Shown: positions 20,640 through 35,476, numbered from the stretch's first letter. The stretch: DNA of 64,000 bases from Candidatus Woesearchaeota archaeon (GCA_018303445.1 JAGVYE010000001.1:2571-66570); one strand, 5' to 3'. Made by a program: numbers and translations. Notes: generated from the sequence alone by a model not told the origin.

Positions 20640-21543
20640 ACTGATAATCCCCTTCTATTTTCGATTCTGTAGTTCCAAACTTTTTTTTATATCTTTCTAA
20701 ATCATCTTGGCTTAATGGTGTAATATAAAAACCGCGATCTATGATTGGAACTCCCTGCCGTGCTAATATGCTCATAACCTGCAGATCGAGGAATTCTTGC
20801 GGCGAATGCGAATTTCTACGTATACAGGCTCGCTTACGGAAAACATAAAAAGACTTGTTTCCTGAAAGTTCAATGAAAGCAACAAGTTTACTTTCTTCAA
20901 ATGCTCCATAAACTGTAGTTAATGGCTGCTGCATTCTTAAACGAAGGGAAGGCGCATATTTCTGTATAATATCTAACCAACCTAGTTCTTTATATAAGTA
21001 TTTATCTAATTCTTCTTTATCAACTTGGTCTTTATTCCTTTCTCTTTTCCTCATGATTCCTTCTTGTTTTTCTCTGACCCAGGCGGTAACAAGATCTACA
21101 AGTTGAGGAGTATCATCAGTTGTAAGTCGTCGATACCAAAAACCAGTGTGCGCAAAACGTTTCAACCGCCGTTCATATTCTTCGGAAGGCAATAGTTTTT
21201 GATACATTCTCGGTTTTTTTTCCTGACCATCTGTAAAAAGACTCTTTGGTATTAATTTGGAGTCTGAATATCCTACTAATAATACAAAAGAAGCAATATC
21301 ACTCACTTCTTTTATTAAAGGTTCCATGTTTTCTTGGAGTTCTTCCTCAAAGGGAGGTGAAATCATAACGGTGTCCTTAGTATATTCCATAAGAAAAGAA
21401 TTTTTCTTTCCGCGAAGAAGGGCATGGGTTCGTGGTTTAGGTTCTTCGTCATTTAAGTTATTGTCCAGCATATGAAAACTATGTCTCATCATTCTCGTAG
21501 GTAATGGTTCTAGTTCCTCTATTGTAAACTGATTTTTTTTCAT
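20626..21543 (-). CDS. Hypothetical protein
   Basis: 305-aa ORF, long and uninterrupted in AT-rich DNA. Confidence 0.35.
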   Translation of the reverse strand: MKKNQFTIEELEPLPTRMMRHSFHMLDNNLNDEEPKPRTHALLRGKKNSFLMEYTKDTVMISPPFEEELQENMEPLIKEVSDIASFVLLVGYSDSKLIPKSLFTDGQEKKPRMYQKLLPSEEYERRLKRFAHTGFWYRRLTTDDTPQLVDLVTAWVREKQEGIMRKRERNKDQVDKEELDKYLYKELGWLDIIQKYAPSLRLRMQQPLTTVYGAFEESKLVAFIELSGNKSFYVFRKRACIRRNSHSPQEFLDLQVMSILARQGVPIIDRGFYITPLSQDDLERYKKKFGTTESKIEGDYQFKSR

Positions 21544-21820: not shown

Positions 21821-22501
21821 TTATCTTAAGTCCATGACAACATAATATTCTGGTACTTTCTGGACTAATTTTGCAGGACAATGAATAACATCCACGTTCT
21901 GATGCTGGAAAGCTTCGTAGGCCGTTCTTTTCGCTTCGCCATAAAATAGAATAATCGCCACCTGAGCTTTTTTTACTAATAAAGCTGACATGGTCATCCT
22001 TTTTGGTGGTGGTTTGGGGGAATCGTCCATAGTAATAAAGAAAGGCGATGGATCTTTTATAGAATGATGGTTTGAGAATAAGGCTCCAATATGTCCGTCT
22101 TCTCCTGAACTAACTAGAATAAAGTCGTATTTTCCACCATATTTCTGTAATTCTTGTTGATATTTCTCTACTCCTTCTTGTACTTTGAAGGGGTGGAGGT
22201 TCTCCTGGCGAATTTTTCCATTTTTTACTAATTCGTCTAGGAACGTCTCTTTGGCGAGACGGAAGTTGCTTTCTTTATCTTCCAATGGAGCTATCCTTTC
22301 GTCGATCATGAAAATATGAATATTATCCCAGGGAATAACAGCTTTTTTGAGGAGTTTAAAAATGCCAGAAACACTTCTGCCGCCTGGAATGGCAAAAACA
22401 ACCTGTTGCTGAGTTCGGAGAAGTTTAGAAAGAGAAAAAGTAATAATCTCTACTACCTTCTGGTCACTTTGGTCTTTGGTAAGATAGCTGAAGGTAGTCA
22501 C
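21821..22501 (-). CDS. pgl: 6-phosphogluconolactonase
   Basis: 'AIPGGRSVSGIF' and 'IHIFMIDERIAP' are 6PGL/GlcN6P-deaminase family motifs. Confidence 0.7.
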   Translation of the reverse strand: MTTFSYLTKDQSDQKVVEIITFSLSKLLRTQQQVVFAIPGGRSVSGIFKLLKKAVIPWDNIHIFMIDERIAPLEDKESNFRLAKETFLDELVKNGKIRQENLHPFKVQEGVEKYQQELQKYGGKYDFILVSSGEDGHIGALFSNHHSIKDPSPFFITMDDSPKPPPKRMTMSALLVKKAQVAIILFYGEAKRTAYEAFQHQNVDVIHCPAKLVQKVPEYYVVMDLR

Positions 22502-23397
22502 TTTTTTTCCAAGGCATGTCCGCCAAATTCGTTTCGTACGGCCGCAATAACGCTCTTTCCTAACGAAAACTTTCCACTTTTATCTTCTCGAATCATCGTT
22601 GCGACATCGAAAGCCGGAGCGTACCCTTTCACGGCTTCTTTGGTTTTGCGCAGTTCTCCGATGGTTACGCTGCCGATAGTGGTACCAATATTTTTAAAAT
22701 CTTCACGGCGCAAGGCTTTTGTCGTTAATTCTAAAAGCCAACTTCTGATAACAGAGGCCGGTTCCCATAAGGCTGTGGCTTTATCCAACGAAATCGGATG
22801 CTTAAATTTGCTGAGCAGTTCAACACCTTCCGCCAAACCCTGAAGATACACATATTCAATAATATTATGCACACTTTTTACAAAATGGCCGGAGCCAGCA
22901 GGACCAAAGTATCCATACCCTCCTTTTGGGGCGAGAGATTTACAAAAAGGTTCTATGGCCGAGAATTCTTCTTTCGGACCGCCAATCATTAAAGTATATC
23001 CGTTTTGCAATCCCCAAATGCCGCCAGAAACGCCGCAGTCGAAGAAATGTACTCCATACTTTTTACACCAAGAGTCATGTTTTTCGGCATTTTCATAAAA
23101 GTCATTTGCGCCATCAATGATAATGTCTCCTTTCTTAAGAAGAGGAAGAAGTTCTTTGATCATTTCATCCGTCGGCTCTCCTGCGGGCAACATCAGCCAG
23201 ACAATTTTTTTCTTATCGAGCTTTGGCAATAATTCTGGGATGCTATAGGCAGGAAGGGCCCCTTTCTTGGCAATTTCATCGACTTTCTCCGGGCTTCTAT
23301 TATACGCCACAACCATATGCTTGTGAAGAAGCAGCCTTTCCGCCATATGGTATCCCATTCTTCCTAAACCAATTAAACCTAGTTTCATAATCGCCAC
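22498..23397 (-). CDS. gnd: 6-phosphogluconate dehydrogenase (decarboxylating), short ~300-aa form
   Basis: 'MKLGLIGLGRMGYHMAERLL' NAD(P) Rossmann. Overlaps pgl and zwf. Confidence 0.75.
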   Translation of the reverse strand: MAIMKLGLIGLGRMGYHMAERLLLHKHMVVAYNRSPEKVDEIAKKGALPAYSIPELLPKLDKKKIVWLMLPAGEPTDEMIKELLPLLKKGDIIIDGANDFYENAEKHDSWCKKYGVHFFDCGVSGGIWGLQNGYTLMIGGPKEEFSAIEPFCKSLAPKGGYGYFGPAGSGHFVKSVHNIIEYVYLQGLAEGVELLSKFKHPISLDKATALWEPASVIRSWLLELTTKALRREDFKNIGTTIGSVTIGELRKTKEAVKGYAPAFDVATMIREDKSGKFSLGKSVIAAVRNEFGGHALEKK

Positions 23398-24770
23398 CTC
23401 AAATGATGTTTTTTTTCAAAAAGCGAGAGTTCCTGCGGTCCGGCACTTCCGATATTATATTCATAGATCTGATTTTTTTTCCGAAGAATTTGTTTGATGA
23501 CTTTCCATTGATATTCTATTTCATCGCTACGAACAAAAAGGGACTGGTCTCCTTTAATCACATCTTCAAGCAGTATTTCATAAGCCTCCGGGGAGCGAAG
23601 GTCGCGTATGCATTCATGGCAATAATTCATTTTTGCCGGCATGACGGCATTTGCTTTTCCAGGAACCTTGGCAAACAATTCCAGGGAAAAACCCTCATCT
23701 GGCTGCACGCGAATGGTAAGATAATTTGTATCACTCGGGCAGCTCGCTGAAAGAAGACAGTGCACGGACTTAAATTTAATATCAATCTTTACTTCTTTCT
23801 TATCCAGATTTTTTCCCGTGATAAGGTAAAAAGGGACGTTTTTCCATCGTTTATTGTTGATGCTTAATTTAACAGCGGCAAAAGTTTCTGTAGAAGAGTT
23901 TGAGTCCACATCTTTTTCTTTTTGATAGCCGCTATATTGGCCCAATAGCAGGTCTTTAACTTTTATGACCTTCAATACTTTTGCTTTTTCATCACGGATG
24001 AATTTTCCGGTTAATTTCTGTGGAGCTTCCATAGCCGTAAGGGCTAACATTTGCAGCATATGGTTTTGCACAACATCTTTGAGAGCACCATATTTATCAT
24101 AAAAATTACCCCGGCCTTCTAGCCCGATTTTTTCCCGGAAATGAATTTGAACAGACTGGATGTTTGAGGAATCCCATAACGGCTCTAAAACCCGATTAGT
24201 AAAGCGGAGAATGGCAATATTGCCAACTAATTCTTTTCCTAAGTAGTGATCTATCCGGTACACTTGGTTTTCATTAAAGACGCGCGCAATTCCTCGGTTA
24301 ATTTTCCTTGCTGACGGTAGATCGTGTCCAAAAGGTTTCTCATAGACAAGACGCGACCATTTCTTTCCCTGCTCTTTGGCAATACCTGTCTTTGCGAGAT
24401 TAAGAGTGATAGCATTAAAGTGGTCGGGGAGAGTGGCAAGATAAAACAGCCGATGGCCAGGCAATTGATGTTTTGATTCTAAGTTTCGTAAGATTTTTCC
24501 TAGCTTACGGTAATGCTGACAATCATAAAAGTCAAATTGTTGATAGTACGCATTGTTTTCAAGCCTTTGCCAGATATTTTCCTTGACATCTTTAATAAAT
24601 TCCCGCGCTTCCTTCAGAATTTCCTTCATCTCTAATTCTCGTCGCGCTGCACCAACAAGGGCAAATTTCTCAATTTTGTTCTCTTCGATAAGTTTGTAAA
24701 TGGCGGGAATAATTTTTCTCTTTGCTAAATCTCCGGTTACACCTAAGATTATGAACGTTATTTCGGGCAT
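23385..24770 (-). CDS. zwf: Glucose-6-phosphate 1-dehydrogenase
   Basis: Signature 'RIDHYLGKE'. N-terminal 'LGVTGDLAKRK'. 461 aa. Confidence 0.8.
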   Translation of the reverse strand: MPEITFIILGVTGDLAKRKIIPAIYKLIEENKIEKFALVGAARRELEMKEILKEAREFIKDVKENIWQRLENNAYYQQFDFYDCQHYRKLGKILRNLESKHQLPGHRLFYLATLPDHFNAITLNLAKTGIAKEQGKKWSRLVYEKPFGHDLPSARKINRGIARVFNENQVYRIDHYLGKELVGNIAILRFTNRVLEPLWDSSNIQSVQIHFREKIGLEGRGNFYDKYGALKDVVQNHMLQMLALTAMEAPQKLTGKFIRDEKAKVLKVIKVKDLLLGQYSGYQKEKDVDSNSSTETFAAVKLSINNKRWKNVPFYLITGKNLDKKEVKIDIKFKSVHCLLSASCPSDTNYLTIRVQPDEGFSLELFAKVPGKANAVMPAKMNYCHECIRDLRSPEAYEILLEDVIKGDQSLFVRSDEIEYQWKVIKQILRKKNQIYEYNIGSAGPQELSLFEKKHHLRWRL

Positions 24771-24779
24771 TCTTTTCCT

Positions 24780-25709
24780 TTACTCTACAATCGGTTTTAT
24801 TTCGTTACCAAATATGGCACTGATTTCTTTGCAGTACGAAACGATATTTTTCTTAAACCAGGGAGGTTTACTTTTCTGAATTTGGCCCATAATAAAATAG
24901 CTTACAGCCATAATACTCCCATAATCAGCTTTGGCAGGGAGAGGGAGGTCAAAGCGATCTTTTCCCCATAAAGTATTTTTATCACCAAAACTGATAAATA
25001 ATTCATCGGGACGTTTTACAATTGTCGTAGCATGTTTAACGTATTCTGTAGAAAAAATAGAGTAGGCAAGCTCTCGGCCAAACATTTCCACAAATTTTTT
25101 GTCTAACATCTCTCTCATAAGCTCAAATTGTGGTGGAAGGAGGAGATAAAAAGCACCATAATTTTGAAAATTGGGAAAATTAAGTTTGGCAATGGTTTTT
25201 TCTATAAACTGAAGGATATGATAGGGATTTTCTCGTGTTTTTCCCAAAATCATACCCAGATATGTTGATGTGTTATAAGTATATGGTTCTCTATTTTTGG
25301 GGAAAATGAAAACATTTTGAGAAGGCAGCTCTTTTGCGGCCAGAGCCTTTTGGTTGTTGGTAATAAGGTAGACTGGTTTCTTTCTTTTCTTCGCTTCTTT
25401 TGCCATTAATGGGGCATGTTTTCCTCCTGAGGCGGAAAAAATGAGAACAGCATCAATATTTTTAATCTTCAGAAGTTTTTCTTGGTAAGAATTTTCATTG
25501 GCGTAAACGGCATCATGGTCATTGAAGATAATCTGGCCGATAGCGGCGGCGTTGCCGCTGCCAATGACTAAAGGGCGTTTCCATTTGCTGATGGGAAGAG
25601 AGGGAAGCTTCGTTTTTGAGAACAATTCCAGAGCCGCCAGGACGCAGGTGTCTAAATTAGGAATATTTTGCAGTGTAAACGTTTGCATAATTTGGAGATA
25701 TTTTCCCAT
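24780..25709 (-). CDS. SIS-domain sugar-phosphate isomerase-like protein (possible bifunctional phosphoglucose/phosphomannose isomerase)
   Basis: 'LVIGSGNAAAIGQI' and 'AVLIFSASGGKHAPL' resemble the SIS domain. Size and adjacency to zwf-gnd-pgl fit archaeal PGI/PMI. Confidence 0.4.
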   Translation of the reverse strand: MGKYLQIMQTFTLQNIPNLDTCVLAALELFSKTKLPSLPISKWKRPLVIGSGNAAAIGQIIFNDHDAVYANENSYQEKLLKIKNIDAVLIFSASGGKHAPLMAKEAKKRKKPVYLITNNQKALAAKELPSQNVFIFPKNREPYTYNTSTYLGMILGKTRENPYHILQFIEKTIAKLNFPNFQNYGAFYLLLPPQFELMREMLDKKFVEMFGRELAYSIFSTEYVKHATTIVKRPDELFISFGDKNTLWGKDRFDLPLPAKADYGSIMAVSYFIMGQIQKSKPPWFKKNIVSYCKEISAIFGNEIKPIVE

Positions 25710-25844
25710 TTTATTTATGCTTTGTTAATCTGTGCTATCCCCTAAAATTTTCATTTGTTTCTGATACCCCACTGCTTGCGGTAGTTGGGTTGTTTTGCAT
25801 CAATTCGCCATTATCAGATGGGATATCAGATACATTAAAAATAC

Positions 25845-25880
25845 CCCGCCCCTTGGGGCGGTTGGGATTTTTATTTTGTC
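25845..25880. terminator. GC-rich hairpin (6-bp stem ccgccc/gggcgg, 4-nt loop) flanked by T-runs on both strands; candidate terminator downstream of the glutaredoxin-like gene
   Basis: 'ccccgccccttggggcgg' is followed by 'gatttttattttg' on the plus strand and preceded by 'aaaaata', which gives a U-run on the minus strand. Confidence 0.35.
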
Positions 25881-25887: not shown

Positions 25888-26193
25888 TTATTTCTTTCTT
25901 TTTGTTTCTTTCTCTAATGCTACTTCAATTGAGCCTGGATCGAAACCAATGATAATCTCTCCGTTAATATCTAAGACAGGAACACCCATTTGACGTGATT
26001 TATCAATCATCTCTTTACGGGCCTTTTCATTAGTACTAACATCAAATTCTTGGTATTTAACCTTTTTTTCTTTAAGAAAAATTTTTGTTTTTTTGCACCA
26101 AGGGCAGGTGGGGGTAGTGTAAATTTTAACGATCATAATTTTCACCTCTTTACTAGCTAAATCCTTTTGAGCTTTATAACTGTTATTGTCCAA
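25888..26193 (-). CDS. Glutaredoxin-like protein
   Basis: 'IYTTPTCPWCKKTKIFL' CPWC active site in a thioredoxin fold. 101 aa. Confidence 0.6.
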   Translation of the reverse strand: MDNNSYKAQKDLASKEVKIMIVKIYTTPTCPWCKKTKIFLKEKKVKYQEFDVSTNEKARKEMIDKSRQMGVPVLDINGEIIIGFDPGSIEVALEKETKRKK

Positions 26194-26220
26194 TTCTGAA
26201 AAAGATAATAAAAAGAAAAA

Positions 26221-26640
26221 TCAAGCAAAGAGTTCTTTCCATTTTCGCGGCCAGCCGCGAATGAGCAATAATGCTAAAGGCACAGCCCAGTTAGCCCAGC
26301 GTTCTATAAAATCCCAAATAGGATCTCCAGCAATTGGTCGAGCAAGGGCAGTTAAGAAACCCCAGGCTGTTGCCCAGATGAGCACCAAGCGAAGAGGGTA
26401 AATAAGAGCTAAAATTCCCACTATCAGGTCCATAATCCCTACGAGACTAAGAAGATTCATAGCTGTAGCTCCCGTAATGCCCGTCATTGCCGTTAACATT
26501 TCGATAAATCTTGGTTTTAATTGCAGGGCAAAGACGCCATGGCCTACAAACTCACCAAACAAACCTATTCTTAAAATCCACTCCACTTTACTAGTTTTTC
26601 CAACACTTTTTTCTTCCACAGGAATTACAGTTTTCTTCAT
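26221..26640 (-). CDS. DoxX family membrane protein
   Basis: 4 TM helices in the DoxX-like pattern 'GLFGEFVGHGVFAL'. Confidence 0.5.
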   Translation of the reverse strand: MKKTVIPVEEKSVGKTSKVEWILRIGLFGEFVGHGVFALQLKPRFIEMLTAMTGITGATAMNLLSLVGIMDLIVGILALIYPLRLVLIWATAWGFLTALARPIAGDPIWDFIERWANWAVPLALLLIRGWPRKWKELFA

Positions 26641-26676
26641 TTTTTACAAACCTCCTTTTTGTTACTTAAGCACATC

Positions 26677-27492
26677 TTATCCGAGACGTATTATATTTGT
26701 GGAGAATAAAATCAAAATAACTCCTAATGCAACCATTATTAACCCGGTAATTAACCGCATCCATTTCCTATTTTGCTTTCTCCATTCTTCTAGTCTCTTA
26801 ACCTTTAATCCAAAATAAACGAGTAGTAAAATAACAATTAAAGGGAGGACAAAAATAAAGTTATAAAGAAGGAGATAAAAAACTACCATGGGTTCAAATC
26901 CAATCTTGGACAGCAACGCTGTAATCGCTAAATAAGGCCCCCCTGTGCAGGGAAGTTCTACCGCGGCGACGAAAATTCCCAAACCTATAGCTCCAAAGAC
27001 ACTAATTTTTTTTATCTTTTCTTTAATCTCAAGGCTTCTCTGATAGGGAATACTTAATGAAAACCCTTGGCCATACCACCAAAAATCTTTAATCTCAATA
27101 AAACCGAGAATAATAACTAAAATTCCTACTCCTATGCCTATAGGTTCCGCTAAGTTAAATCGTTGCAGGAAAAGCAATAGACCAATCCCTGCTAATAAAT
27201 ATGTAATGTAAACTGCAAGGATATAAATTATCCCAACAAAAAGCATTTTCTGTTTATTCTTTGATAAAGCCAAGAGGGTTCCAATTAATAAAATTAAAAC
27301 TCCGATAGCGCAAGGATTAATAGAGTCTACTAAAGCTGTTGTGAGAACGATGGGAAGGGTTGGGAAAGAAATGTTTTCCAGAGCAACTGCTCCTGTAAGA
27401 GAGAATTCTCCGGAAGCAAGGAAAAAAACACTACAAAAGATAAAAAATAGCGTCAAGATTAAGAAAGCATTAAATCTCATGCGAAAGCACAT
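26677..27492 (-). CDS. Cytochrome c biogenesis CcdA / DsbD-transmembrane-domain family thiol-disulfide transporter
   Basis: 'VDSINPCAIGVLILLIG' (conserved TM Cys). Second half 'VELPCTGGPYL'. Confidence 0.65.
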   Translation of the reverse strand: MCFRMRFNAFLILTLFFIFCSVFFLASGEFSLTGAVALENISFPTLPIVLTTALVDSINPCAIGVLILLIGTLLALSKNKQKMLFVGIIYILAVYITYLLAGIGLLLFLQRFNLAEPIGIGVGILVIILGFIEIKDFWWYGQGFSLSIPYQRSLEIKEKIKKISVFGAIGLGIFVAAVELPCTGGPYLAITALLSKIGFEPMVVFYLLLYNFIFVLPLIVILLLVYFGLKVKRLEEWRKQNRKWMRLITGLIMVALGVILILFSTNIIRLG

Positions 27493-27896
27493 CCTGCTTT
27501 TTGAGCAATAGTTTCCAAAGGCTGAACTCCCACAATTCTTGTTCCATCTTTAAATTCCCAGGTGGGATATTTCTCGACCTTCTTTTCCAGGCAAAGACTG
27601 GTTTTCGCTTTTATGCCGCGACAGGCAGCGGGCAATTCCTCTTTTGCCACATCACAACGCGGGTCACATTCTATGTATACTTCTTTCTCTTTTAAGATAA
27701 AATTTGATTTTCCAAACATCTTTTCTTGCTTGGCACAATTTGGACACCAGAAAGCGCCATATTCTTTAACTTCTTTTTCGGCTAAACAGTTCGCTAACTT
27801 GTCCGTAACGTCCTTGGGATAAGAAGAGCTGCTACAGCCTATAATAAAGAACAATCCTAGTATTAATAATGTCAATATAATTCTATCTCTTTTCAT
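27477..27896 (-). CDS. Secreted thioredoxin-like protein (CxxC)
   Basis: Signal/TM helix then 'GAFWCPNCAKQEKMF'. Confidence 0.5.
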   Translation of the reverse strand: MKRDRIILTLLILGLFFIIGCSSSSYPKDVTDKLANCLAEKEVKEYGAFWCPNCAKQEKMFGKSNFILKEKEVYIECDPRCDVAKEELPAACRGIKAKTSLCLEKKVEKYPTWEFKDGTRIVGVQPLETIAQKAGCAFA

Positions 27897-28371
27897 GGCA
27901 TATCACTTTTAATTGGTACGATAAAATAAGCATCACGATAATAATCAGGTCTGCCGCCACACAAAGAATGCAGATCGACAGAATAAAAACTAATTCCGTG
28001 TACAGCAAATAAAGTGCAAAGAGCAGGCTCAGGAGCATCAAATAAAACAAAAAAGTTGAAAACGATTTTTTATTAAGAAGAAAAGAGTTAAGTTTTAGTT
28101 CTTTATTTGTTTTGATAGAGAAAAGAGAAACAACCACAATCATAAAAGTCACTATTCCCAGGAATGACACGGGAATCCCGCTTCCTGGCGGGAATTCTGA
28201 GTAAATGCTTTTATTGACAATGTCGCAGCTTAATTCGGGTGCAAAATCACAAAAGCTTTCTGTATCCGCATAATGGAGGAATAATAAATAAGAAAAGATA
28301 ATAATCGCGAGAAGTGAAAAGGAGAACATCCACTTAATTATTTTCAGCTTACAACTCTTTTTTTTGGACAT
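27883..28371 (-). CDS. Vitamin K epoxide reductase (VKOR) family protein, paralog 1
   Basis: Loop Cys pair 'FCDFAPELSCDIV' and TM CxxC 'ICILCVAADL'. Confidence 0.6.
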   Translation of the reverse strand: MSKKKSCKLKIIKWMFSFSLLAIIIFSYLLFLHYADTESFCDFAPELSCDIVNKSIYSEFPPGSGIPVSFLGIVTFMIVVVSLFSIKTNKELKLNSFLLNKKSFSTFLFYLMLLSLLFALYLLYTELVFILSICILCVAADLIIIVMLILSYQLKVICHEKR

Positions 28372-28538
28372 ATCTAATTTTAAGAAGATCTTGTAGTATA
28401 TAATACTTCTGTGAAAATAGATAATAAAATTGACTGTATTTTAATAGCAAACAGTCCATTCAGAAATCCAAAAAAGGTTATAACAAACTTTATTAATTTA
28501 AACAGTTTATCTTTCATTATTGAAAAAGAGGTAATATT

Positions 28539-29915
28539 ATGAGAACATTTGATTTAATTGTTATTGGTTCTGGTGGGGGGGCGAATCTTGTTTCTTTAGC
28601 GTATGAGTTAGGTTATACCGTAGCTTTAATAGAAGAGTGGAAGTTAGGAGGGACTTGTCTGAACCGTGGCTGTATTCCTTCGAAGATGCTGATCCATCCT
28701 GCAAATGTCTCGCGAATAATCCAAGAAGCGGAAAAGTTTTACATTAAAGCCTATCAAAAATCAATTAATTTCCCACAAATTCTTAAGCGGATTAATAAAA
28801 CGACGGACACGGAGTCAAATGATATTAAAGAATGGTATCAGGAAAAGAGAAAAGGATTGGCTTTTTATTCCGGCCATGCTCGTTTTATTTCGAATAGAAT
28901 AATAGAAGTGCAAGGTGAAAAGATAACTGCGGAAAAAATTGTTATTGCCACCGGAGCACGATCTTCCATTCCTCTTATTCCAGGATTAAAAGGAACGCCC
29001 TATCTCACAAGTATGGAAGCATTGCGGTCGCGGCTTTTACCAAAAAAACTTTTCGTTATCGGCGGGGGATACATTGCCTGCGAGCTTGGTCATGCCTATG
29101 GCGCTTTGGGATCGGAAGTTCATTTACTTGTTCGAGACAGGGCTTTATTGACACGGGAAGACGGAGAAATAAGTAAGAATTTTACAGAAGCCTTTTCAAG
29201 GAGATATCAAGTGCATTTTTGGACCGTGACGGAAAAAGTAGAGTACAAAAAGAAAAAGTTTACTCTTTATCTTAAAGATGCTGAAGGTAAAAAATCAAAG
29301 ATAAGTGGCGATGGATTACTGATGGCTACAGGTGTAATGCCGAATAGTGATAAATTAGGGTTAGAGAATACGAACATTTCTGTAAATGAAAAGGGCTTTA
29401 TTAAAGTAAATGAGTATTTAGAAACAGCAGTGCCGGGGGTATATTCTCTAGGTGATGTGGTGGGGAACTATATGTTCAGACATAGTGTGAATTTTGAAAG
29501 TCAGTTTTTATTTCAAGCTTTATTCGGTAAGCAACGAAAACCAATTCAATATCCTCCCATGCCCCATGCGGTGTTTACAAATCCGGAAGTAGGATCTGTA
29601 GGAATGACGGAAGAAGAGTTGCAGAAGAAGAATATCTCTTATGTGGTGGGGAAAAATGAATATCGAAAATCAGCCATGGGAGAAGCACGCTTAAGTTCAA
29701 AGGAAGAATTTGTTAAATTGTTATTTCACAAACAAACAAGAAAATTATTGGGAGCACATATCCTGGGAGAGGAAGCGTCAACGATGATTCATCAGTTAAT
29801 CTATGCGATGACGTTTGGCGCAACAGCTGAGGATTTATTAAAAATGATTTATATTCATCCGGCTTTGCCGGAGGTCATACAAAAGGCAGCGGAGAAGGCA
29901 AGCGATGGATTTTAG
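28539..29915 (+). CDS. Flavoprotein disulfide reductase (dihydrolipoamide dehydrogenase / glutathione-reductase class)
   Basis: 'LIVIGSGGGA' FAD motif and redox-active 'GGTCLNRGCIPSK'. 458 aa. Confidence 0.7.
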   Translation: MRTFDLIVIGSGGGANLVSLAYELGYTVALIEEWKLGGTCLNRGCIPSKMLIHPANVSRIIQEAEKFYIKAYQKSINFPQILKRINKTTDTESNDIKEWYQEKRKGLAFYSGHARFISNRIIEVQGEKITAEKIVIATGARSSIPLIPGLKGTPYLTSMEALRSRLLPKKLFVIGGGYIACELGHAYGALGSEVHLLVRDRALLTREDGEISKNFTEAFSRRYQVHFWTVTEKVEYKKKKFTLYLKDAEGKKSKISGDGLLMATGVMPNSDKLGLENTNISVNEKGFIKVNEYLETAVPGVYSLGDVVGNYMFRHSVNFESQFLFQALFGKQRKPIQYPPMPHAVFTNPEVGSVGMTEEELQKKNISYVVGKNEYRKSAMGEARLSSKEEFVKLLFHKQTRKLLGAHILGEEASTMIHQLIYAMTFGATAEDLLKMIYIHPALPEVIQKAAEKASDGF

Positions 29916-29976
29916 GAGAAAATTTTAATTCTTTTCCATAAATCTTTTAATATCCTTATCTTACTTTCTCTTTTCA

Positions 29977-31287
29977 TCATTTGCCTAACCAGGGAACATA
30001 GTTATTAAATCCATTGTTTGTTAGTCTTTTTCTATCCGTCCCGTCTGGATTAATGGTGAAAAGGTCTCTTGGTTCTTCTAATGTTGCTTGGCCTGTGTAA
30101 ACTATTCTTGAACCATTTAGTAAAAATCTTGGTCCTGAGCTTGTATCGACATTAACTCCATTTGAAATTGTAATACGATCCATTCTGTCTAAGTTTAGAT
30201 CATAAATAAATAAAGCACTGAGATATACGGATTCAGGTGGTACTCCTTCTGGAATATTTTCAGTTGTGGAACCACTTATTACTAATTTAGAACTGTCGGG
30301 AGACCATTCAAAGGCGTGTGGTTGATAAATCTCTCTATTTTTTGGGAGGTTTAATACTTTTCCTGAATCGCGATCATATATTGCCAAACCGAAATTTTCT
30401 GATATTTGGTCATAGATGTTTAATACTATTTTTGTTCCATCTGGAGACCAAGACAAGGCATGTAACATTGATCCTTCTAATCTTACTGTTCTTTTTTTTC
30501 CGCTTAAATCAGTAATAGTTAGAATAACGTTATTTATTCCACTGGCATAAGCAATTGTTTCTCCATCCGGTGACCAAGCAAAACTTTCATTGATCATTTC
30601 ACCACTCGTTATATTTTGTCTGTTTCCTGTTTCTACATTATATAATCTTAAATCTATGGAATCAATTTCTTCTCTTGTTTTTTTAAATGAGAGATATGCT
30701 AAGGTTTTTCCATTTGGTGCGAATTGCGGCAGTCCGCTTAAGCCTGACTCTATAGGGATTATTTCTCTTGTTCTTAAGTCTGTAAGCATTAAGTCTAGTT
30801 GTAAACAACCTTCACTATGTTCAGGAATGCATCCTTCTTTAAAATATTCATTGCCGTAGGCTAATAATCTATTCCCATTTGGCGAGAAATCTATACCTGC
30901 AGTTTCTCCTCTTCTTAAATCAGCAACTTCTCTTCGAAAACTTCCATCACTATTCATGATATTTAGTGCTGTTCTTTGGCTATCTCTCGTTAGATAAGCA
31001 ATCCCACACCCATCATTTGTTAGTCCAACAACTATGTTCATTGCTCCATCATTAACTAAGTCTTTCTCTTCAGAACCATCCGGTTTTATGCTTTTAATTC
31101 TTTGATCTTTTTCAAGAAGGTCAATTGATTGAGATTGAAAGATTATAATATCTCTTAAATCTGGTTTACATGAAAATACGGGAGTTTCTTGCCGTAGATC
31201 TGCTGCTGGAGATGATTCACAAGCCAATTTTAATAGTCCTAGTGAACCGGCAATTATGCTTTCTCTTCTAGTTAGTCTTAATGCCAT
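29977..31287 (-). CDS. Secreted TolB-like WD40/PD40 beta-propeller protein
   Basis: Repeated 'WSPDG' units: 'FAWSPDGETIAY', 'LSWSPDGTKIV', 'FEWSPDSSKLV'. Confidence 0.55.
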   Translation of the reverse strand: MALRLTRRESIIAGSLGLLKLACESSPAADLRQETPVFSCKPDLRDIIIFQSQSIDLLEKDQRIKSIKPDGSEEKDLVNDGAMNIVVGLTNDGCGIAYLTRDSQRTALNIMNSDGSFRREVADLRRGETAGIDFSPNGNRLLAYGNEYFKEGCIPEHSEGCLQLDLMLTDLRTREIIPIESGLSGLPQFAPNGKTLAYLSFKKTREEIDSIDLRLYNVETGNRQNITSGEMINESFAWSPDGETIAYASGINNVILTITDLSGKKRTVRLEGSMLHALSWSPDGTKIVLNIYDQISENFGLAIYDRDSGKVLNLPKNREIYQPHAFEWSPDSSKLVISGSTTENIPEGVPPESVYLSALFIYDLNLDRMDRITISNGVNVDTSSGPRFLLNGSRIVYTGQATLEEPRDLFTINPDGTDRKRLTNNGFNNYVPWLGK

Positions 31288-31392
31288 TTTATTCTATAAC
31301 TAAGCTTTCTTTATAAATATTTCTGAAATTGCCACTATGAAGTAATACCTTTCTTAAACCACAAAATCATGGAGATGAAGAAAAAAAAATAA

Positions 31393-32424
31393 TTACCTAT
31401 ACCTTCTCATCGTTTTCCATTCGATAATAGTTTTCATAATTCCAGGAATAAGACCGGTAAAGACAAAATCTCTATAAATAAAAATTCCATTGTATTTTCC
31501 TAAGCTAATAACCATTGGTTTCGGCTCTGGATTATACATTAGTAATGGTTCTCCTTGCTCTAAATGATAAATGTTTTTGACAACTAATCTCGCTTGTTTC
31601 TCAGCACTCTGGGCTGTTTTTTCTTCTTTAATATTATTTATATCGCCAGCGGCGAAGATATTTTTATGGCCTTGCACTTGGAGATATTCATTGACGCACA
31701 GAAAGTTCTTTGAATTTAATTCTATTGAGCAATATGAAGCCAGATGCTCATAGTTCGGCATGATACCGGTACATAGAAAGGCAATATCGGGATGGAGTTT
31801 TTTCCCTGTTCTAGTTTTATATACGCCGCTTTCATTTTCTATTATCCTTTCATTGAAGATAAGTTGTACCTTTCTTTTTTCCAACCATTGTTTTGCATAC
31901 CTCTGCGCTTTTTGTGGAGTTCGTTCCATTAATTCTGGCTTAGTATGAATAAGAGTAATTTCTTTCTCAGGATAATGAGTACTAATTTCCGCCGCTAATT
32001 CGACACCAACTATTCCTCCGCCAATAATAAGAACGTCTTGAGCATGCCTTAATTTTTGCGCATAAAGGCGAAGTTCCTGCCCTCTGCTTGCTACAACCCT
32101 GTTTGTTTCTTTAATGGGAGTTTCATAGCGTGATCCAGAGGCGATTATTAGATAGTCGTAGGAAAATTCTTGTTGGTTTGTGGACACGGAAGAATCTTTG
32201 ATTTTTATAATGGAGTCACGCACAATATGGGCTTTATGAAGATAGTGCGTATGCAGTACTTGGATTTTTTTCACATGCTGTGGTTCTACCAAGGTGCGAA
32301 GAATGGAAGGAGTAAATTCAAAATAATCTTTAGTGTCAATTAATGTTACATCAAAGTCTCTTTCTAAGTTCCTGGCTGCGACTGCTCCGGCAAACCCGCC
32401 CCCAATTATAACTACTTTTTTCAT
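31393..32424 (-). CDS. Type II NADH dehydrogenase / FAD-dependent pyridine nucleotide-disulfide oxidoreductase (NDH-2 or SQR-like)
   Basis: 'KVVIIGGGFAGAVAA' and a second Rossmann 'VLIIGGGIVGVELA'. Confidence 0.6.
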   Translation of the reverse strand: MKKVVIIGGGFAGAVAARNLERDFDVTLIDTKDYFEFTPSILRTLVEPQHVKKIQVLHTHYLHKAHIVRDSIIKIKDSSVSTNQQEFSYDYLIIASGSRYETPIKETNRVVASRGQELRLYAQKLRHAQDVLIIGGGIVGVELAAEISTHYPEKEITLIHTKPELMERTPQKAQRYAKQWLEKRKVQLIFNERIIENESGVYKTRTGKKLHPDIAFLCTGIMPNYEHLASYCSIELNSKNFLCVNEYLQVQGHKNIFAAGDINNIKEEKTAQSAEKQARLVVKNIYHLEQGEPLLMYNPEPKPMVISLGKYNGIFIYRDFVFTGLIPGIMKTIIEWKTMRRYR

Positions 32425-32483
32425 GATTATTTCATAAAAGGTTCTCTTTTTATGTCTTTTCCCAAAAAGAGGCTTACAGAAAA

Positions 32484-32756
32484 CTATCCTTCTTCTCCAC
32501 GCAGAATTCTGAGTGTTTTATCATAATCCTGTGCCGCATCTCTGTCAATGGTTCGGTAATAGGCATTCAAGCGCTGAAATTCACGTACTGCAATGCCAAA
32601 AGGAGCGTAATTAAGAATTTCATCAAGCTGTCGTTCAATAACTGTGGGGTCAATCTCTTCATTACTGATAAGGTTATCTACGGTTAACTGTATGCGTGGT
32701 ACTTGCCTTTGAGCAATTTTTCTCGCCCTTTCAATTGACCTAAAAATATCCGTCAT
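32484..32756 (-). CDS. Hypothetical protein
   Basis: 90-aa ORF. Confidence 0.3.
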   Translation of the reverse strand: MTDIFRSIERARKIAQRQVPRIQLTVDNLISNEEIDPTVIERQLDEILNYAPFGIAVREFQRLNAYYRTIDRDAAQDYDKTLRILRGEEG

Positions 32757-32918
32757 ACTTTTATCATTATTTTCTTTTTGGAGATAAAAGTATTTGACTA
32801 AAATTTTCTCAAAATGAGAGTTTCAATTATTCTTTTTAATTATTGGTGCAGATACTTTTTTATAGGAAGTTTCTTTTCTTGTTTCATAGAAAATATTCAA
32901 TATCAACATTTTTTGGCT

Positions 32919-33395
32919 ATGAAAGAAAAAAATCAAGCAATGATTTTGAAAGTAATGCTCGTTCTGGGAATACTCGGTCTTATAACGGCGGCATACCAAA
33001 CGGTTGAATATTACTTTCTGAGAAGCAGCTTCTGTGATTTTAGCCCTAATTTTTCCTGTTCCATCGTCACTCAATCCTCTTACGGAGAATTTCCCTTCCT
33101 CTCTGGGATAGCGGTGTCTCTTTATGCTGTTCTTTGGTGGCTGGTTCTTTTAGGCATCATTTCTTTAATGCTCTGGAAGAAAAAGGAATGGTTCTTGTAT
33201 CTTAAGGTCTGGATGATCTTAGGGATCATGAGCGCTCTTTATTTCCTTTTCGTCGAGCTCTATTTACTTCCCCAAGAAATTGGACTGATCGTGATTTGTC
33301 CTTTTTGCACAATACAACATCTGTTGATCGCAACTCTTTTGGTCATGGGATTTTTTTTCACAAGGAAAAATTTATTAATGACAGATTCTTCCTAG
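32919..33395 (+). CDS. Vitamin K epoxide reductase (VKOR) family protein, paralog 2 (start moved to internal Met)
   Basis: 'FCDFSPNFSCSIV' loop Cys pair and 'ICPFCTIQHL' CxxC. The ORF-track start at 32814 adds 35 implausible residues. Confidence 0.55.
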   Translation: MKEKNQAMILKVMLVLGILGLITAAYQTVEYYFLRSSFCDFSPNFSCSIVTQSSYGEFPFLSGIAVSLYAVLWWLVLLGIISLMLWKKKEWFLYLKVWMILGIMSALYFLFVELYLLPQEIGLIVICPFCTIQHLLIATLLVMGFFFTRKNLLMTDSS

Positions 33396-33593: not shown

Positions 33594-34511
33594 ATGAGAA
33601 AACTTACTAAGATTGAGGACCTTAGAATGATGGCGGATATTATCAGAGAAGATAGTATTGTTTCCTTAAGTGCAGCTAAATCCGGCCATTCAGCCGGACC
33701 ATTAGGCATGGCTGATATCTTTACTGCTTTTTACTTTAATATTCTAAAGCACAATCCTGAAAAACCTAACTGGCCGGACAGGGACAGGTTAATTCTGTCT
33801 AATGGGCATATCTGTCCAGTGTTATATGCAACGATGGCTAATGCCGGCTATTTTCCCAAAAAAGAATTATTAACACTCCGCAAATTAGGCACGAGGTTAC
33901 AAGGACATCCACATCGCGTTGCTTTACCTGGACTGGAAACTACTTCTGGTCCGCTGGGGTCGGGATTATCGCAAGCTGCCGGGATGGCTTATGGTTTCAA
34001 ACTCGACAAGAAAAAAAATCTTGTCTGGTGCTTATGCAGCGATGGGGAACAAGATGAGGGCAACCACTGGGAAGCAGTATTATTTGCTGCCAAACATAAA
34101 CTGAACAATTTGGTTGCGGTCACGGACAGAAATTATATCCAAATTGATGGAAATACAGAACAGGTTATGCCTCTCGACCCCTTGGACCAGAAATATCGGG
34201 CTTTCAATTGGAATGTTCAAACAATAAACGGCAATGATATGCAGGAAATCTTAAAAGTATTAACTGCAGCTAGAATGAATAAAAACAAACCGTTGATGGT
34301 TATTGCTAACACTATGCCTGGTAAAGGAGTTTCCTACATGGAAGGGGATTACCGTTGGCATGGTTCCCCTCCTGGTACTATAACCACAGAAAGGACACCA
34401 GCCAAAGAAAAACAAACAGCAATTGCTTTAGAGCAGCTTCATCAAAAAGAAGCTAAGGAACGCGGAAACTGGTATCTTTACCATAAAAAATTACGCCCCC
34501 TGCATTCATGA
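33594..34511 (+). CDS. Transketolase, N-terminal (TPP-binding) subunit
   Basis: 'GHSAGPLGMADI' and 'TSGPLGSGLSQAAGMA'. Split form typical of archaea. Confidence 0.8.
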   Translation: MRKLTKIEDLRMMADIIREDSIVSLSAAKSGHSAGPLGMADIFTAFYFNILKHNPEKPNWPDRDRLILSNGHICPVLYATMANAGYFPKKELLTLRKLGTRLQGHPHRVALPGLETTSGPLGSGLSQAAGMAYGFKLDKKKNLVWCLCSDGEQDEGNHWEAVLFAAKHKLNNLVAVTDRNYIQIDGNTEQVMPLDPLDQKYRAFNWNVQTINGNDMQEILKVLTAARMNKNKPLMVIANTMPGKGVSYMEGDYRWHGSPPGTITTERTPAKEKQTAIALEQLHQKEAKERGNWYLYHKKLRPLHS

Positions 34512-35476
34512 AGAATCTCAATAAACAAATGAATTTGGACTTAACACGGGAGCGAGTTCCTACCAGAAATGGATACGGAGACGCACTGATGGAATTAGGC
34601 AAAAAAAATAAGAAAGTCATGGTTCTCTGCGCTGACTTGAAAGAATCGACGCGAGTTCAGGCTTTTGCTGAAAAATTTCCCCAGCGCTATGTTGAAATGG
34701 GGGTAGCGGAACAAAACCTTGTTACAGTTGCTTCGGGATTAGCTGACGTTGGTAAAATTCCCTTTGCTTCGTCTTATGCGGTCTTCTGCCCAGGAAGGTG
34801 CTGGGAGCAAATTAGAACCACGATTTGTTATAATGATCGCAATGTTAAAATTATCGGCGCCCATGCTGGCATTTCCGTTGGCCCTGATGGAGCTACTCAT
34901 CAAATGTTGGAAGATCTGGCCTTAATGCGGGCTTTGCCGAACATGATTGTAGTAGTACCTTGTGATTATGAGCAGGCCAAAAAAGCCACGGCGGCCATTG
35001 CGAAGTATAAAGGTCCCACCTATATGCGTTTTGCTCGTGAAAAAACAGAGCAGATCACAACAAGTAAAACTTCTTTTAAAATCGGAGTTGCCCAAATCTT
35101 TAAGGATGGTTCTGACGTGGCGCTGGTTGCCGCTGGCCCGTTGATTTATGAATGTCTGCTGGCAGCAGACAAATTAAATGAAAAGGGAATTAAAGCGATG
35201 GTTGTAAATTGTCATACCATTAAGCCTTTAGATGGCAGAACTTTACTTACTGTAGCCAGAAAATGTAAAAAAGTAATAACTGTTGAAGAAGCGCAAATTG
35301 CAGGAGGATTAGGTGGTGCGGTGGCGGAATTTTTATCCGAAGTTTATCCTGTGAAAATGAAACGAATTGGTGTTCGAGATCATTTTGGAGAATCAGGAGA
35401 ACCAGATGAATTATTAAAAAAATTTGGCTGTAGTGCAGAAGCTATTTATAAAGAAAGTCTTAAGTTGTGCACGTAG
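34508..35476 (+). CDS. Transketolase, C-terminal (pyrimidine-binding) subunit
   Basis: ATGA overlap with the N-terminal subunit gene. 'YVEMGVAEQNLVTVASGLA'. Confidence 0.8.
   Translation: MKNLNKQMNLDLTRERVPTRNGYGDALMELGKKNKKVMVLCADLKESTRVQAFAEKFPQRYVEMGVAEQNLVTVASGLADVGKIPFASSYAVFCPGRCWEQIRTTICYNDRNVKIIGAHAGISVGPDGATHQMLEDLALMRALPNMIVVVPCDYEQAKKATAAIAKYKGPTYMRFAREKTEQITTSKTSFKIGVAQIFKDGSDVALVAAGPLIYECLLAADKLNEKGIKAMVVNCHTIKPLDGRTLLTVARKCKKVITVEEAQIAGGLGGAVAEFLSEVYPVKMKRIGVRDHFGESGEPDELLKKFGCSAEAIYKESLKLCT

Follow-up and report, generated by a model that had tools for sequence, protein, structure and literature searches.

Does an archaeon of the Woesearchaeota possess the classical oxidative pentose phosphate pathway (PPP) of bacteria and eukaryotes and, if so, what is the origin of the genes and the role of the SIS-domain gene that leads them? 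The preliminary description of a 64,000-nucleotide stretch of Candidatus Woesearchaeota DNA (the window) reported, in an archaeon, an operon of overlapping zwf, gnd and pgl genes together with a SIS-domain gene, the enzymes being of the bacterial/eukaryotic type as opposed to the non-homologous haloarchaeal glucose-6-phosphate dehydrogenase (G6PDH), with a RIDHYLGKE signature in the G6PDH, a short-form 6-phosphogluconate dehydrogenase (6PGDH) and a split transketolase about 8 kb away. All these features were recovered in the present analysis, the two transketolase halves lying at a distance of 7.9 kb (Table 1). We consider it likely that an archaeon of the Woesearchaeota (DPANN) transcribes the region as a single unit and thereby runs the classical oxidative PPP, the SIS-like protein included.

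Table 1 Features of the operon and its surroundings (positions counted from the first nucleotide of the window).
Feature	Position	Strand	Description
TYW2/Trm5	8758-9810		archaeal-type flank gene
PAN-like AAA ATPase	10950-12161		archaeal-type flank gene
pgl	21821..22501	-	6-phosphogluconolactonase, 226 aa
gnd	22498..23388	-	short-form decarboxylating 6-phosphogluconate dehydrogenase, 296 aa, predicted NADP-dependent
zwf	23385..24770	-	classical glucose-6-phosphate 1-dehydrogenase, 461 aa
SIS-like gene	24780..25709	-	309 aa, first in operon, uncharacterised double-SIS family, candidate PGI
A/T-rich spacer	25710..25845	-	upstream of SIS-like ATG, read from the sequence
G+C hairpin and T-run	25846..25861	-	between glutaredoxin-like and SIS-like genes
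Glutaredoxin-like (YruB family)	25888..26193	-	directly upstream of operon; TIGR02196 93.4, cutoff 88.55
Thiol/disulfide redox island	26221..33395	.	between operon and transketolase; the next four rows belong to it
Island genes			membrane protein, 139 aa; SfLAP/DsbD-like, 271 aa; thioredoxin-like, 139 aa; VKOR, 162 aa
Class-I flavoprotein disulfide reductase	28539-29915		458 aa
Island genes			beta-propeller, 436 aa; VKOR, 193 aa
FAD oxidoreductase	31393-32424		343 aa
Split transketolase	33594..35476	+	N half 33594-34511, C half 34508-35476
RFC-like	43440-44639		archaeal-type flank gene
Proteasome alpha	48669-49397		archaeal-type flank gene
SBDS	49452-50144		archaeal-type flank gene
TrmB	54062-54802		archaeal-type flank gene

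Open reading frames read from the window form a co-directional minus-strand series at 25709..21821, in the order SIS-like, zwf, gnd and pgl. The zwf and gnd genes overlap by 4 nt (ATGA), as do gnd and pgl (GTGA), suggestive of translational coupling of these three genes; the SIS-like gene and zwf are 9 nt apart, without overlap. The start of gnd is most likely the ATG at 23388, which yields 296 aa and matches the ENA gene calls, rather than the GTG at 23397. The hairpin upstream of the SIS-like gene (CCGCCCCAAGGGGCGG, followed by GGTATTTTTA) is probably the end of the upstream transcription unit; since terminator-like sites in this region are not more frequent than in shuffled sequences, it counts as positional evidence only. 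The spacer between the hairpin and the SIS-like gene is presumably where the archaeal promoter of the four genes lies.

By profile scores, domains and motifs, Zwf, Gnd and Pgl are assigned to the classical enzyme families. In the profile search, Zwf scored 505.9 bits against TIGR00871 (cutoff 400.6), and it holds both Pfam domains, G6PD_N (PF00479, 185 bits) and G6PD_C (PF02781, 313 bits), as well as the motifs GVTGDLA (10-16, dinucleotide fold, GxxGDLA type), GAARR (40-44), EKPFG (144-148), RIDHYLGKE (172-180, the peptide that binds the substrate) and VQNH (234-237, with the catalytic His of the D-x-x-QNH type). Aligned to the solved G6PD 9emm, RIDHYLGKE and VQNH are identical in both proteins. 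Equivalog score, domain content, signature and catalytic motifs all indicate a classical Zwf. The protein is 100% identical to an NCBI entry named 'glucose-6-phosphate dehydrogenase [Candidatus Woesearchaeota archaeon]', and the operon proteins in general have identical NCBI entries derived from a Candidatus Woesearchaeota MAG. The conserved Arg pair in GAARR suggests that it uses NADP+. Membership in the haloarchaeal SDR-type family (Azf) is ruled out, G6PD_N and G6PD_C being the only domains present.

Score, length (~300 aa) and domain content likewise place Gnd among short-form 6PGDHs, the type that the haloarchaeal oxidative PPP also employs. It scored 303.4 bits against NF007161, the NADP-dependent subfamily (cutoff 271), and comprises NAD_binding_2 (PF03446, 136.6 bits) and a truncated 6PGD C-domain (PF00393, 32 bits); the nearest solved protein is the 6-phosphogluconate dehydrogenase 6vpb (332 aa). 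The catalytic Lys/Asn/Glu motif (GxGHxVKxVHNxIEY type; GSGHFVKSVHNIIEY, 165-179) and the substrate-binding loop GVSGG (119-123) align with 6vpb and 10gw, and YNRS (29-32; N-R-S at 30-32) stands where these two carry DR. Assignment to the NAD+-dependent TIGR00872 (gnd_rel) was rejected, since the score of 260.7 bits falls short of the cutoff (297.2) and N-R-S replaces D-R where that family calls for an acidic residue, at the end of the second beta strand; we infer that Gnd prefers NADP. Pgl lies marginally above the TIGR01198 cutoff (129.4 vs. 124.45 bits), scores 149.5 bits against Glucosamine_iso (PF01182) and contains PGGRS, IDER and GEDGHIGALF; its best solved relatives are all 6-phosphogluconolactonases, with 1vl1/1pbt at the top. 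As a glucosamine-6-phosphate deaminase it was rejected (NagB models at most 37.6 bits, cutoffs at least 236).

The SIS-like protein scored 21.5 bits against Pfam SIS (PF01380), under the gathering score of 25, and no match was obtained in the NCBIfam profile search, in the sequence search of the PDB or with hhalign against GlmS. The confident predicted structure and its fold matches give it a double-SIS fold, with two SIS copies and phosphate-binding loops, as expected of the SIS superfamily; the nearest folds include isomerases, deaminases, aminotransferases and a glucokinase regulatory protein, at only 8-15% identity. Invariant across the family are GSGNA (50-54), SASGGKH (92-98), EPYTYNTSTY (141-150), K205-x2-E208, E222-x3-H226 and a C-terminal PIVE. 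Motif comparison with the GlmS/AgaS/NagB-II double-SIS family, with which identity is only 8-15% and which profile searches do not detect, pairs the loops ACGTS and SQSGET with GSGNA and SASGGK, finds invariant counterparts of the GlmS pattern K485-x2-E488...KH504 and of both phosphate loops, and extends to a conserved C-terminal '(T/I)VE' tail. The SIS-like family differs in its own unique invariant motif, PKNREPYTYNTSTY, in having no conserved counterpart of the GlmS Schiff-base lysine K603, and in its context, the PPP as opposed to amino-sugar metabolism. In 1996 Leriche and colleagues reportedly detected PGI-like activity in the isomerase domain of GlmS on its own. The bifunctional PGI/PMI of Aeropyrum, Pyrobaculum and Thermoplasma (TIGR02128; 1tzb) resembles the SIS-like protein in length (~300 aa) and double-SIS architecture, and its hexose-6-phosphate aldose-ketose isomerisation is the role proposed here. 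Sequence models place the SIS-like protein neither in this family (TIGR02128; Pfam bact-PGI_C) nor among classical PGIs (PF00342).

We surveyed the neighbourhood of the SIS-like family in 80 metagenome loci, in 64 of which a PPP gene lies within three genes (29 of 35 when only loci flanked on either side by 3 kb or more are counted). Directly beside it lie genes for transaldolase (34), zwf (21), rpiB (7), ROK kinase (5) and gnd (5), and rpe, tkt and GH13 genes are also recurrent; the gene order, tal > SIS-like > zwf > gnd, matches the reaction order. Fusions of transaldolase with PGI are known from bacteria. A classical PGI was detected in none of the SIS-like loci examined. In L006, a locus of Babeliales whose Zwf falls in the same super-clade, a classical PGI overlaps the start of zwf, in the slot held elsewhere by the SIS-like gene, and in L085, a close relative, zwf and pgl occur without the SIS-like gene or gnd alongside. 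The SIS-like gene is common to DPANN and CPR bacteria, and the distribution of PGI in the latter is patchy (PMC7304191).

Judging from gene order, the PGI slot of L006 and the conserved Glu/His/Lys set, the SIS-like protein may well be a PGI, although the mixed functions and low identity of its nearest folds, the lack of an hhalign match to GlmS and the arrangement in L085 count against this. It is unlikely that it is another catalytic phosphosugar enzyme at the edge of the PPP, such as a NagB-II-type glucosamine-6-phosphate deaminase or an isomerase of sedoheptulose-7-phosphate, ribulose-5-phosphate/arabinose-5-phosphate or tagatose/fructose-6-phosphate, given that amino-sugar, heptose and KDO genes are absent from its recurrent neighbours, that RpiB and Rpe co-occur in the clusters, so that their steps, including ribulose-5-phosphate conversion, are already covered, and that neither the missing K603 counterpart nor the classical PGI of L006 fits such a role. 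A non-enzymatic function, as a sugar-phosphate-binding regulator or Zwf assembly partner conceivably analogous to OpcA of cyanobacteria or the glucokinase regulatory protein, which has a SIS fold, would agree with the frequent use of SIS domains as ligand sensors, with RpiR/MurR among the fold matches and with the tight adjacency to zwf in many loci. However, an active isomerase site would require just the invariant K-x2-E...H and pair of phosphate-binding loops seen here, the commonest neighbour is transaldolase and not zwf, and the SIS-like protein keeps 52-55% identity where the accompanying Zwf falls to 30-36%, which argues against co-evolution with one partner and makes a regulator quite improbable.

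The host of the operon is archaeal, as archaeal-type genes flank it on both sides. The closest labelled non-archaeal relatives of Zwf are bacteria (54-59% identity), as might be expected if a bacterial fragment had been misjoined to the archaeal contig or the operon had been gained very recently; against this, four independent assemblies yielded the same order of genes between archaeal flanks, so that the contig is not chimeric, the synteny of the surroundings persists in L085, whose Zwf is 67% identical, GC and GC3 z-scores (-0.1 to +1.8) are native, and the vicinity is free of mobile-element genes, the one transposase being 25 kb off. Misjoining or very recent gain is thus effectively refuted. 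Each half of the transketolase, which is the partner from the non-oxidative PPP, matches half of NF004559, with Transketolase_N in the N half and Transket_pyr plus Transketolase_C in the C half; the transketolase-zwf synteny is kept in L085, where redox-island genes also flank zwf and a glutaredoxin gene adjoins it. A glutaredoxin gene is likewise near the cassette in L004, L097 and L099, and the 343-aa oxidoreductase has homologues directly beside zwf-gnd in L092 and L094 and close by in L097 and L099. A search confined to the 64-kb window found no HPS/PHI, transaldolase or Rpi gene.

Among the best 120 Zwf matches in 5.8 billion proteins (53-70% identity), the only labels are Woesearchaeota/Nanoarchaeota, Dependentiae (TM6) and unclassified bacterium; Bacillales come next, at ~40-43%. 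In the neighbor-joining tree, DPANN and Dependentiae form a super-clade (100% bootstrap vs. Bacillales), within which sequences with either label fall in sister clades (bootstrap 65 and 50). With modest support, few taxon labels and an outgroup of Bacillales only, the trees do not fix the direction of transfer between DPANN and Dependentiae. The best 120 Gnd matches (69-81% identity) carry only Woesearchaeota or Nanoarchaeota/Nanoarchaeia labels; in a 50%-identity library, one full-length representative, at 75% identity, reached 500 bits; the runner-up scored 266 bits at 45%, and the small remainder over 50% consists of fragments or partial matches. Outside DPANN, nearly all of the closest Gnd relatives lack a taxon label, the one labelled outgroup being a Thermodesulfobacteriota bacterium, and Gnd beside Dependentiae zwf is only 35-39% identical to that of this operon. 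By these comparisons, the Zwf clade includes Dependentiae, and the Gnd clade is tight and archaeal wherever labelled.

Nothing points to a Zwf clade spanning the archaea, and inter-domain transfer is accordingly the economical reading; of the outcome named in the preliminary description as refuting its proposal, one part, a broad clade with vertical inheritance, does hold at the DPANN level. The horizontal acquisition previously proposed holds in part: the affinities of Zwf agree with it, and transfer of the operon as a single unit does not stand, given the distance between Gnd and its Dependentiae counterparts and the sharing of the SIS-like gene with CPR. The proposal that the pathway is unusual for the lineage is contradicted, as Zwf and, above all, Gnd are conserved and common across Woesearchaeota/Nanoarchaeota, zwf/devB/gnd are present in a published Woesearchaeota metabolic map (PMC11606122), and native composition with conserved synteny indicates an old and common trait. 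The cassette thus appears to be an old, widespread mosaic in Woesearchaeota/Nanoarchaeota, its component genes differing in history. Ancestral archaeal genes inherited vertically, with Dependentiae (and, for the SIS-like gene, CPR) as recipients, would fit the separate DPANN clades of Zwf and Gnd, the native composition, the unfixed direction in the Zwf tree and the midpoint-rooted SIS-like tree, in which the sequences labelled CPR group as a single clade (bootstrap 83) embedded among those labelled DPANN. We nonetheless consider this improbable: the archaeal labels among the listed Zwf and Gnd matches are all DPANN, except for L004, a contig binned as Methanosarcinales with a DPANN/CPR-type cassette, and the next Zwf relatives and the one labelled Gnd outgroup are bacterial. 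Classical Zwf, moreover, occurs almost universally in Bacteria and Eukarya, and most cultured archaea are not known to possess it.

The cassette shares with the classical oxidative PPP its Zwf, Pgl and Gnd families, with intact catalytic signatures and scores over curated cutoffs, and the clustering, here with transketolase; comparable are the pgi-zwf-gnd clusters of Dependentiae and zwf/devB/gnd annotated in Woesearchaeota MAGs, and the proteins are already so named in NCBI. It differs in its archaeal host, its location inside a thiol-redox gene island, its ~300-aa Gnd with an NADP-type NRS motif, and its first gene, an uncharacterised double-SIS protein instead of a known PGI. The haloarchaeal oxidative PPP, summarised in a passage of PMC12525153 citing Pickl and Schönheit 2015, combines the SDR-type G6PDH Azf with a short 6PGDH; it shares with the present system an archaeal oxidative route from glucose-6-phosphate to ribulose-5-phosphate, whereas the present system has a canonical Zwf, unrelated to Azf, as its first dehydrogenase and includes a Pgl gene.

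Set beside the observed operon structure, taxonomic affinities and genomic linkage of the cassette genes, a pathway can be proposed whereby the SIS-like protein would turn fructose-6-phosphate, which transketolase would supply in this archaeon and transaldolase in relatives, into glucose-6-phosphate; Zwf would convert it to 6-phosphogluconolactone, yielding NADPH, Pgl would hydrolyse the lactone, and the short NADP-type Gnd would decarboxylate 6-phosphogluconate to ribulose-5-phosphate with a second NADPH. The pentoses would feed nucleotide synthesis. Redox-island genes are likely consumers of the NADPH, which the neighbouring flavoprotein disulfide reductases and the thiol system of glutaredoxin, VKOR and DsbD-like proteins would probably spend, suggestive of a link between the PPP and thiol redox. 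In this archaeon, the SIS-like protein probably supplies the glucose-6-phosphate isomerase otherwise missing from the pathway.

The four co-directional ORFs of the operon comprise the gene for a 309-aa double-SIS protein (hereafter SIS-like), followed by zwf, gnd and pgl, the last three identified unambiguously by curated models, with NagB models falling far under their cutoffs on Pgl. A zwf-gnd-pgl operon with a SIS-domain gene in an archaeon, the RIDHYLGKE signature in Zwf (residues 172–180) and a nearby split transketolase, all noted in the preliminary description, were each recovered. In alignments to solved structures, the signatures hold: Zwf also contains GVTGDLA, EKPFG and the catalytic VQNH, Gnd contains GSGHFVKSVHNIIEY and GVSGG, and Pgl contains PGGRS, IDER and GEDGHIGALF. 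When the start of gnd is placed at the ATG at 23388, as in public gene calls (product of 296 aa), the zwf/gnd overlap is ATGA and the gnd/pgl overlap is GTGA, and zwf, gnd and pgl look translationally coupled; the SIS-like gene ends 9 nt from zwf. Because a G+C hairpin with a T-run (3' of a glutaredoxin-like gene) and an A/T-rich spacer of ~135 nt precede the SIS-like ATG, and another T-run follows pgl, the four genes look like one unit. A scan for terminators and sigma-70 promoters, the latter inapplicable to an archaeon, performed no better than on shuffled sequences. A 305-aa protein was rejected as a fifth member, being separated from pgl by 277 nt and the T-run; it is missing from the related locus L085 and from all 80 SIS-like loci analyzed here, has no Pfam or NCBIfam match, and lies 3' of pgl in all assemblies of this organism.

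Features of the operon and its surroundings (window positions)
Feature	Position	Strand	Evidence or remark
SIS-like ORF	24780-25709	-	ORF listing
zwf ORF	23385-24770	-	TIGR00871, 505.9 bits (cutoff 400.6)
gnd ORF, short 6-phosphogluconate dehydrogenase	22498-23397	-	NF007161, 303.4 bits (cutoff 271)
pgl ORF, 6-phosphogluconolactonase	21821-22501	-	TIGR01198, 129.4 bits (cutoff 124.45; marginal)
G+C hairpin and T-run	25861-25846		upstream of SIS-like gene
305-aa protein	20626-21543		rejected as operon member
YruB-type glutaredoxin-like protein	within 25888-33395		redox island
VKOR homologue	27883-28371		redox island
VKOR homologue	32814-33395		redox island
SfLAP/DsbD-like membrane protein	within 25888-33395		redox island
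Thioredoxin-like protein	within 25888-33395		redox island
Class-I flavoprotein disulfide reductase, 458 aa	within 25888-33395		redox island; under every NCBIfam equivalog cutoff
FAD oxidoreductase, 343 aa	within 25888-33395		redox island
Split transketolase	33594-35476		
Glutamate dehydrogenase	7010-8254		
Proline biosynthesis trio	12284-15034		complete-looking
DDE_Tnp_1 transposase gene	50476-51174		~25 kb from operon

Archaeal genes of information processing and proteostasis flank the operon on both sides (PAN-type AAA ATPase, TYW2/Trm5, RFC, proteasome alpha, SBDS and TrmB). Zwf has a 100% identical counterpart at NCBI under 'Candidatus Woesearchaeota archaeon', and the match of the SIS-like protein is 'hypothetical protein J4421_00150' from that taxon. 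The gene order and flanks recurred in separate assemblies of three ENA samples and one SRA run, and profiling of GC and GC3 revealed no foreign signature, the operon being normal for the window (z from −0.1 to +1.8). Given these observations, contamination, chimerism and recent acquisition are excluded for practical purposes. The window had no match in scans with Rfam and for tRNAs, which left no rRNA for taxonomy. The transposase gene is the sole mobile-element gene seen in the window. The proline trio consists of an aldehyde dehydrogenase-family protein (likely gamma-glutamyl phosphate reductase), an amino-acid kinase and pyrroline-5-carboxylate reductase; together with the glutamate dehydrogenase, it exceeds the biosynthetic capacity usually attributed to DPANN.

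When Zwf was compared with 5.8 billion proteins, the best 120 matches showed 53–70% identity, and the named ones among them belonged to Woesearchaeota/Nanoarchaeota, Dependentiae (TM6) and an unclassified 'bacterium' MAG; among GTDB representative genomes, Dependentiae/Babeliales were best (48–58%), followed by Bacillales (~40–43%). In an NJ tree (134 sequences, 461 columns, 100 bootstraps), a DPANN plus Dependentiae super-clade was separated from Bacillales with 100% support, and within it two sister clades gathered, respectively, all Dependentiae-labelled top matches (bootstrap 50) and all DPANN-labelled ones (bootstrap 65); a second archaeal-labelled pair of loci (L004/L068) and a Babeliales/unclassified-bacterium pair (L006/L021) branched deeper. 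This topology fits at least one crossing of the domain boundary by bacterial-type Zwf between Dependentiae-like bacteria and DPANN, in either direction, with the NJ method, sparse labels and single outgroup limiting what the tree says on the direction and number of transfers.

For Gnd, the best 120 matches were 69–81% identical, and all their taxon labels were Woesearchaeota or Nanoarchaeota/Nanoarchaeia. When the library searched was clustered at 50% identity, a single full-length representative reached 500 bits (75%), the next in rank 266 bits (45%), the few other matches above 50% identity being fragments or partial matches; the nearest non-DPANN relatives had a single taxon label, obtained via cluster members (Thermodesulfobacteriota bacterium). 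From the differing affinities of Gnd and Zwf, we infer that the operon is a mosaic, not a single transferred block. Thus, of the horizontal acquisition proposed in the preliminary description, a bacterial connection is reasonable for Zwf, but not transfer as one block, the Gnd adjoining Dependentiae zwf being only 35–39% identical to that of the window. In L085, where Zwf is 67% identical to that of the window, synteny is conserved (tktC-tktN-VKOR-FAD oxidoreductase-disulfide reductase-Grx-zwf-pgl), and zwf-pgl has neither gnd nor the SIS-like gene beside it. Nor is the pentose-phosphate pathway (PPP) unusual for the lineage, as had been suggested: it is stable, widespread and already annotated in Woesearchaeota, where it is annotation-level knowledge, given that the metabolic map of a 2024 MAG study includes zwf, devB and gnd (PMC11606122). 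We found no paper on the origin of the oxidative PPP of Woesearchaeota, and neither a DPANN–Dependentiae Zwf link nor a dedicated analysis of DPANN Zwf in the literature.

In L068 (Woesearchaeota isolate J104, 8001–11148), a Zwf only 41% identical to that of the window is directly followed by an unsplit 598-aa transketolase ORF; given this distant Zwf, more than one lineage of the enzyme seems to occur in DPANN. L004 (CAZQLW010000009.1, 'uncultured Methanosarcinales archaeon') encodes grx, tal, SIS-like (48%), zwf (52%), a HAD-like hydrolase, gnd (40%), rpiB and rpe, a DPANN/CPR-type cassette, so that either the contig is mis-binned or a euryarchaeote acquired the cassette in a separate transfer. 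In Dependentiae/Babeliales loci, zwf and a short gnd are followed, in the pgl slot, by a PF04199 'putative cyclase' hydrolase (L006, 8479–9108; L005, 7568–8281; probably also L001, 10291–10911, and L003, 4057–4761), which may be a non-orthologous 6-phosphogluconolactonase.

The SIS-like protein itself scores 21.5 bits against Pfam SIS, under the cutoff of 25, and has no NCBIfam match; searches of PDB sequences with the single sequence (phmmer) and a 50-sequence profile produced no match, only noise (invertase, E 0.04; phosphoheptose isomerase, E 0.12), and identity to its closest fold matches is 8–15%. The label 'PGI/PMI-like' given to this gene is wrong at the family level. A PGI/PMI-type domain is absent from all 50 family members searched. 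More than 2,100 homologues were detected at E ≤ 0.001, nearly all named 'hypothetical protein', the best 120 at 52–69% identity (the query's own entry aside), in Woesearchaeota, Pacearchaeota and Nanoarchaeota as well as CPR bacteria (Daviesbacteria, Yonathbacteria, Roizmanbacteria, Vogelbacteria and Saccharimonadales); we found no paper on this family. In a midpoint-rooted NJ tree, CPR-labelled members group together (bootstrap 83) within the DPANN-labelled ones, which hints at a DPANN-to-CPR transfer.

To place the family in its genomic context, we analyzed 80 metagenomic loci with a SIS-like member, calling neighbours within ±6 kb by homology searches, ORF clustering and Pfam checks of cluster representatives. 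The most frequent were gnd (43/80), zwf (40), transaldolase (39) and flavoprotein (di)sulfide oxidoreductases (30), followed by GH13 (18), DsbD-like (16), glutaredoxin-like (13) and ROK glucokinase-like (11) proteins, RpiB (9), Rpe and transketolase (8 each) and pgl (7). The immediate neighbour was transaldolase in 34 loci, zwf in 21, RpiB in 7, and ROK and gnd in 5 each. At least one PPP gene lay no more than three genes away in 64 of the 80 loci; when the count was restricted to the 35 with at least 3 kb on both sides, 29 had such a gene. Two orders recur, tal > SIS-like > zwf > gnd, with Zwf 50–65% identical to that of the window, and zwf > gnd > (tal) > SIS-like > ROK > GH13, with Zwf at 30–36% and SIS-like at 52–55%; thus, the linkage of SIS-like to the PPP outlasts changes in gene order and Zwf lineage. 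The CPR-type loci (L086–L165, e.g. L124, L132 and L143) combine SIS-like proteins 52–55% identical between DPANN and CPR with adjoining Zwf at 30–36%, and carry additional genes for a ROK kinase, a GH13 alpha-glucosidase/amylase, a VTT-domain membrane protein, an NADPH-dependent FMN reductase and a dual-specificity phosphatase.

In these clusters, every enzyme of the cycle except phosphoglucose isomerase (PGI) has a recognisable family, and the SIS-like loci yielded no classical PGI. The arrangement tal > X > zwf parallels the succession F6P > G6P > lactone in the pathway, and in the Babeliales locus L006, from the same Zwf super-clade, the SIS-like slot is taken by a classical PGI (PF00342) whose gene overlaps the zwf start; in L021, one lies two genes upstream. 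Since hhalign assigned a probability of 0.45% to the match of the family profile with E. coli GlmS, catalytic motifs were compared by eye, by motif and not by superposition; by this correspondence, the invariant residues appear to mirror the GlmS isomerase site: GSGNA (50–54) corresponds to ACGTS303, SASGGK (92–97) to SQSGET (347–352), K205-F-V-E208 ... E-Y-V-K-H226 to K485-L-K-E488 ... E-L-K-H504, and the C-terminal PIVE to TVE. By contrast, the Schiff-base lysine of the GlmS aminotransferase, K603, has no conserved counterpart, which fits a plain isomerase.

On balance, we lean towards the SIS-like protein being a PGI of a new family. Another phosphosugar isomerase or a deaminase is unlikely, and a non-catalytic sugar-phosphate sensor is quite improbable. 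The wider proposal, that SIS-like founds an unrecognised, structurally GlmS-like PGI family, shared and probably exchanged between DPANN and CPR, which closes the oxidative PPP cycle and accounts for part of the 'missing PGI' in reconstructions of these ultra-small organisms, we hold to be evenly balanced.

With SIS-like as PGI, F6P recycled by the nearby split transketolase would be converted to G6P and, via the operon, to Ru5P, yielding two NADPH; NADP use is predicted from the GAARR arginines in Zwf and from N-R-S in Gnd, which takes the place of D-R in the solved short-form enzymes 6vpb and 10gw. When the window was searched by tblastn with representatives of transaldolase, RpiB, Rpe, ROK and GH13, nothing was found, so the remaining PPP genes must lie elsewhere in the genome. 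Between the operon and the transketolase lies a dense thiol/disulfide redox island of 7.5 kb. VKOR normally requires quinone, a surprising need in a DPANN archaeon, which is believed to have no respiratory chains. Because thiol-redox partners recur beside zwf-gnd in relatives and CPR loci, NADPH supply for thiol-redox maintenance, alongside pentose supply, appears a reasonable purpose. That the cassette is so often linked to flavoprotein disulfide reductase, glutaredoxin-like and VKOR/DsbD-like proteins suggests a specific use of NADPH in organisms lacking respiratory chains.

The zwf, gnd and pgl genes add little by themselves, being named by NCBI and covered by published Woesearchaeota metabolic maps; they show bacterial-type NADPH generation as a stable, widespread trait of one DPANN lineage, not an oddity. 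What is new is the fourth gene: its double-SIS family is recognisable by structure but an orphan in sequence, is tied to the PPP in both DPANN and CPR, comprises >2,000 'hypothetical proteins' >50% identical across both radiations, and is placed between transaldolase and zwf. In CPR, PGI is patchy, with three known forms, and in CPR/DPANN reconstructions upper-glycolysis steps including PGI are repeatedly described as patchy or missing, from which host dependence for hexose phosphates was inferred (PMC7304191). If SIS-like is a PGI, this reaction would have been solved independently once more, and if it is the missing isomerase, some of the auxotrophies inferred for CPR and DPANN would be annotation gaps.
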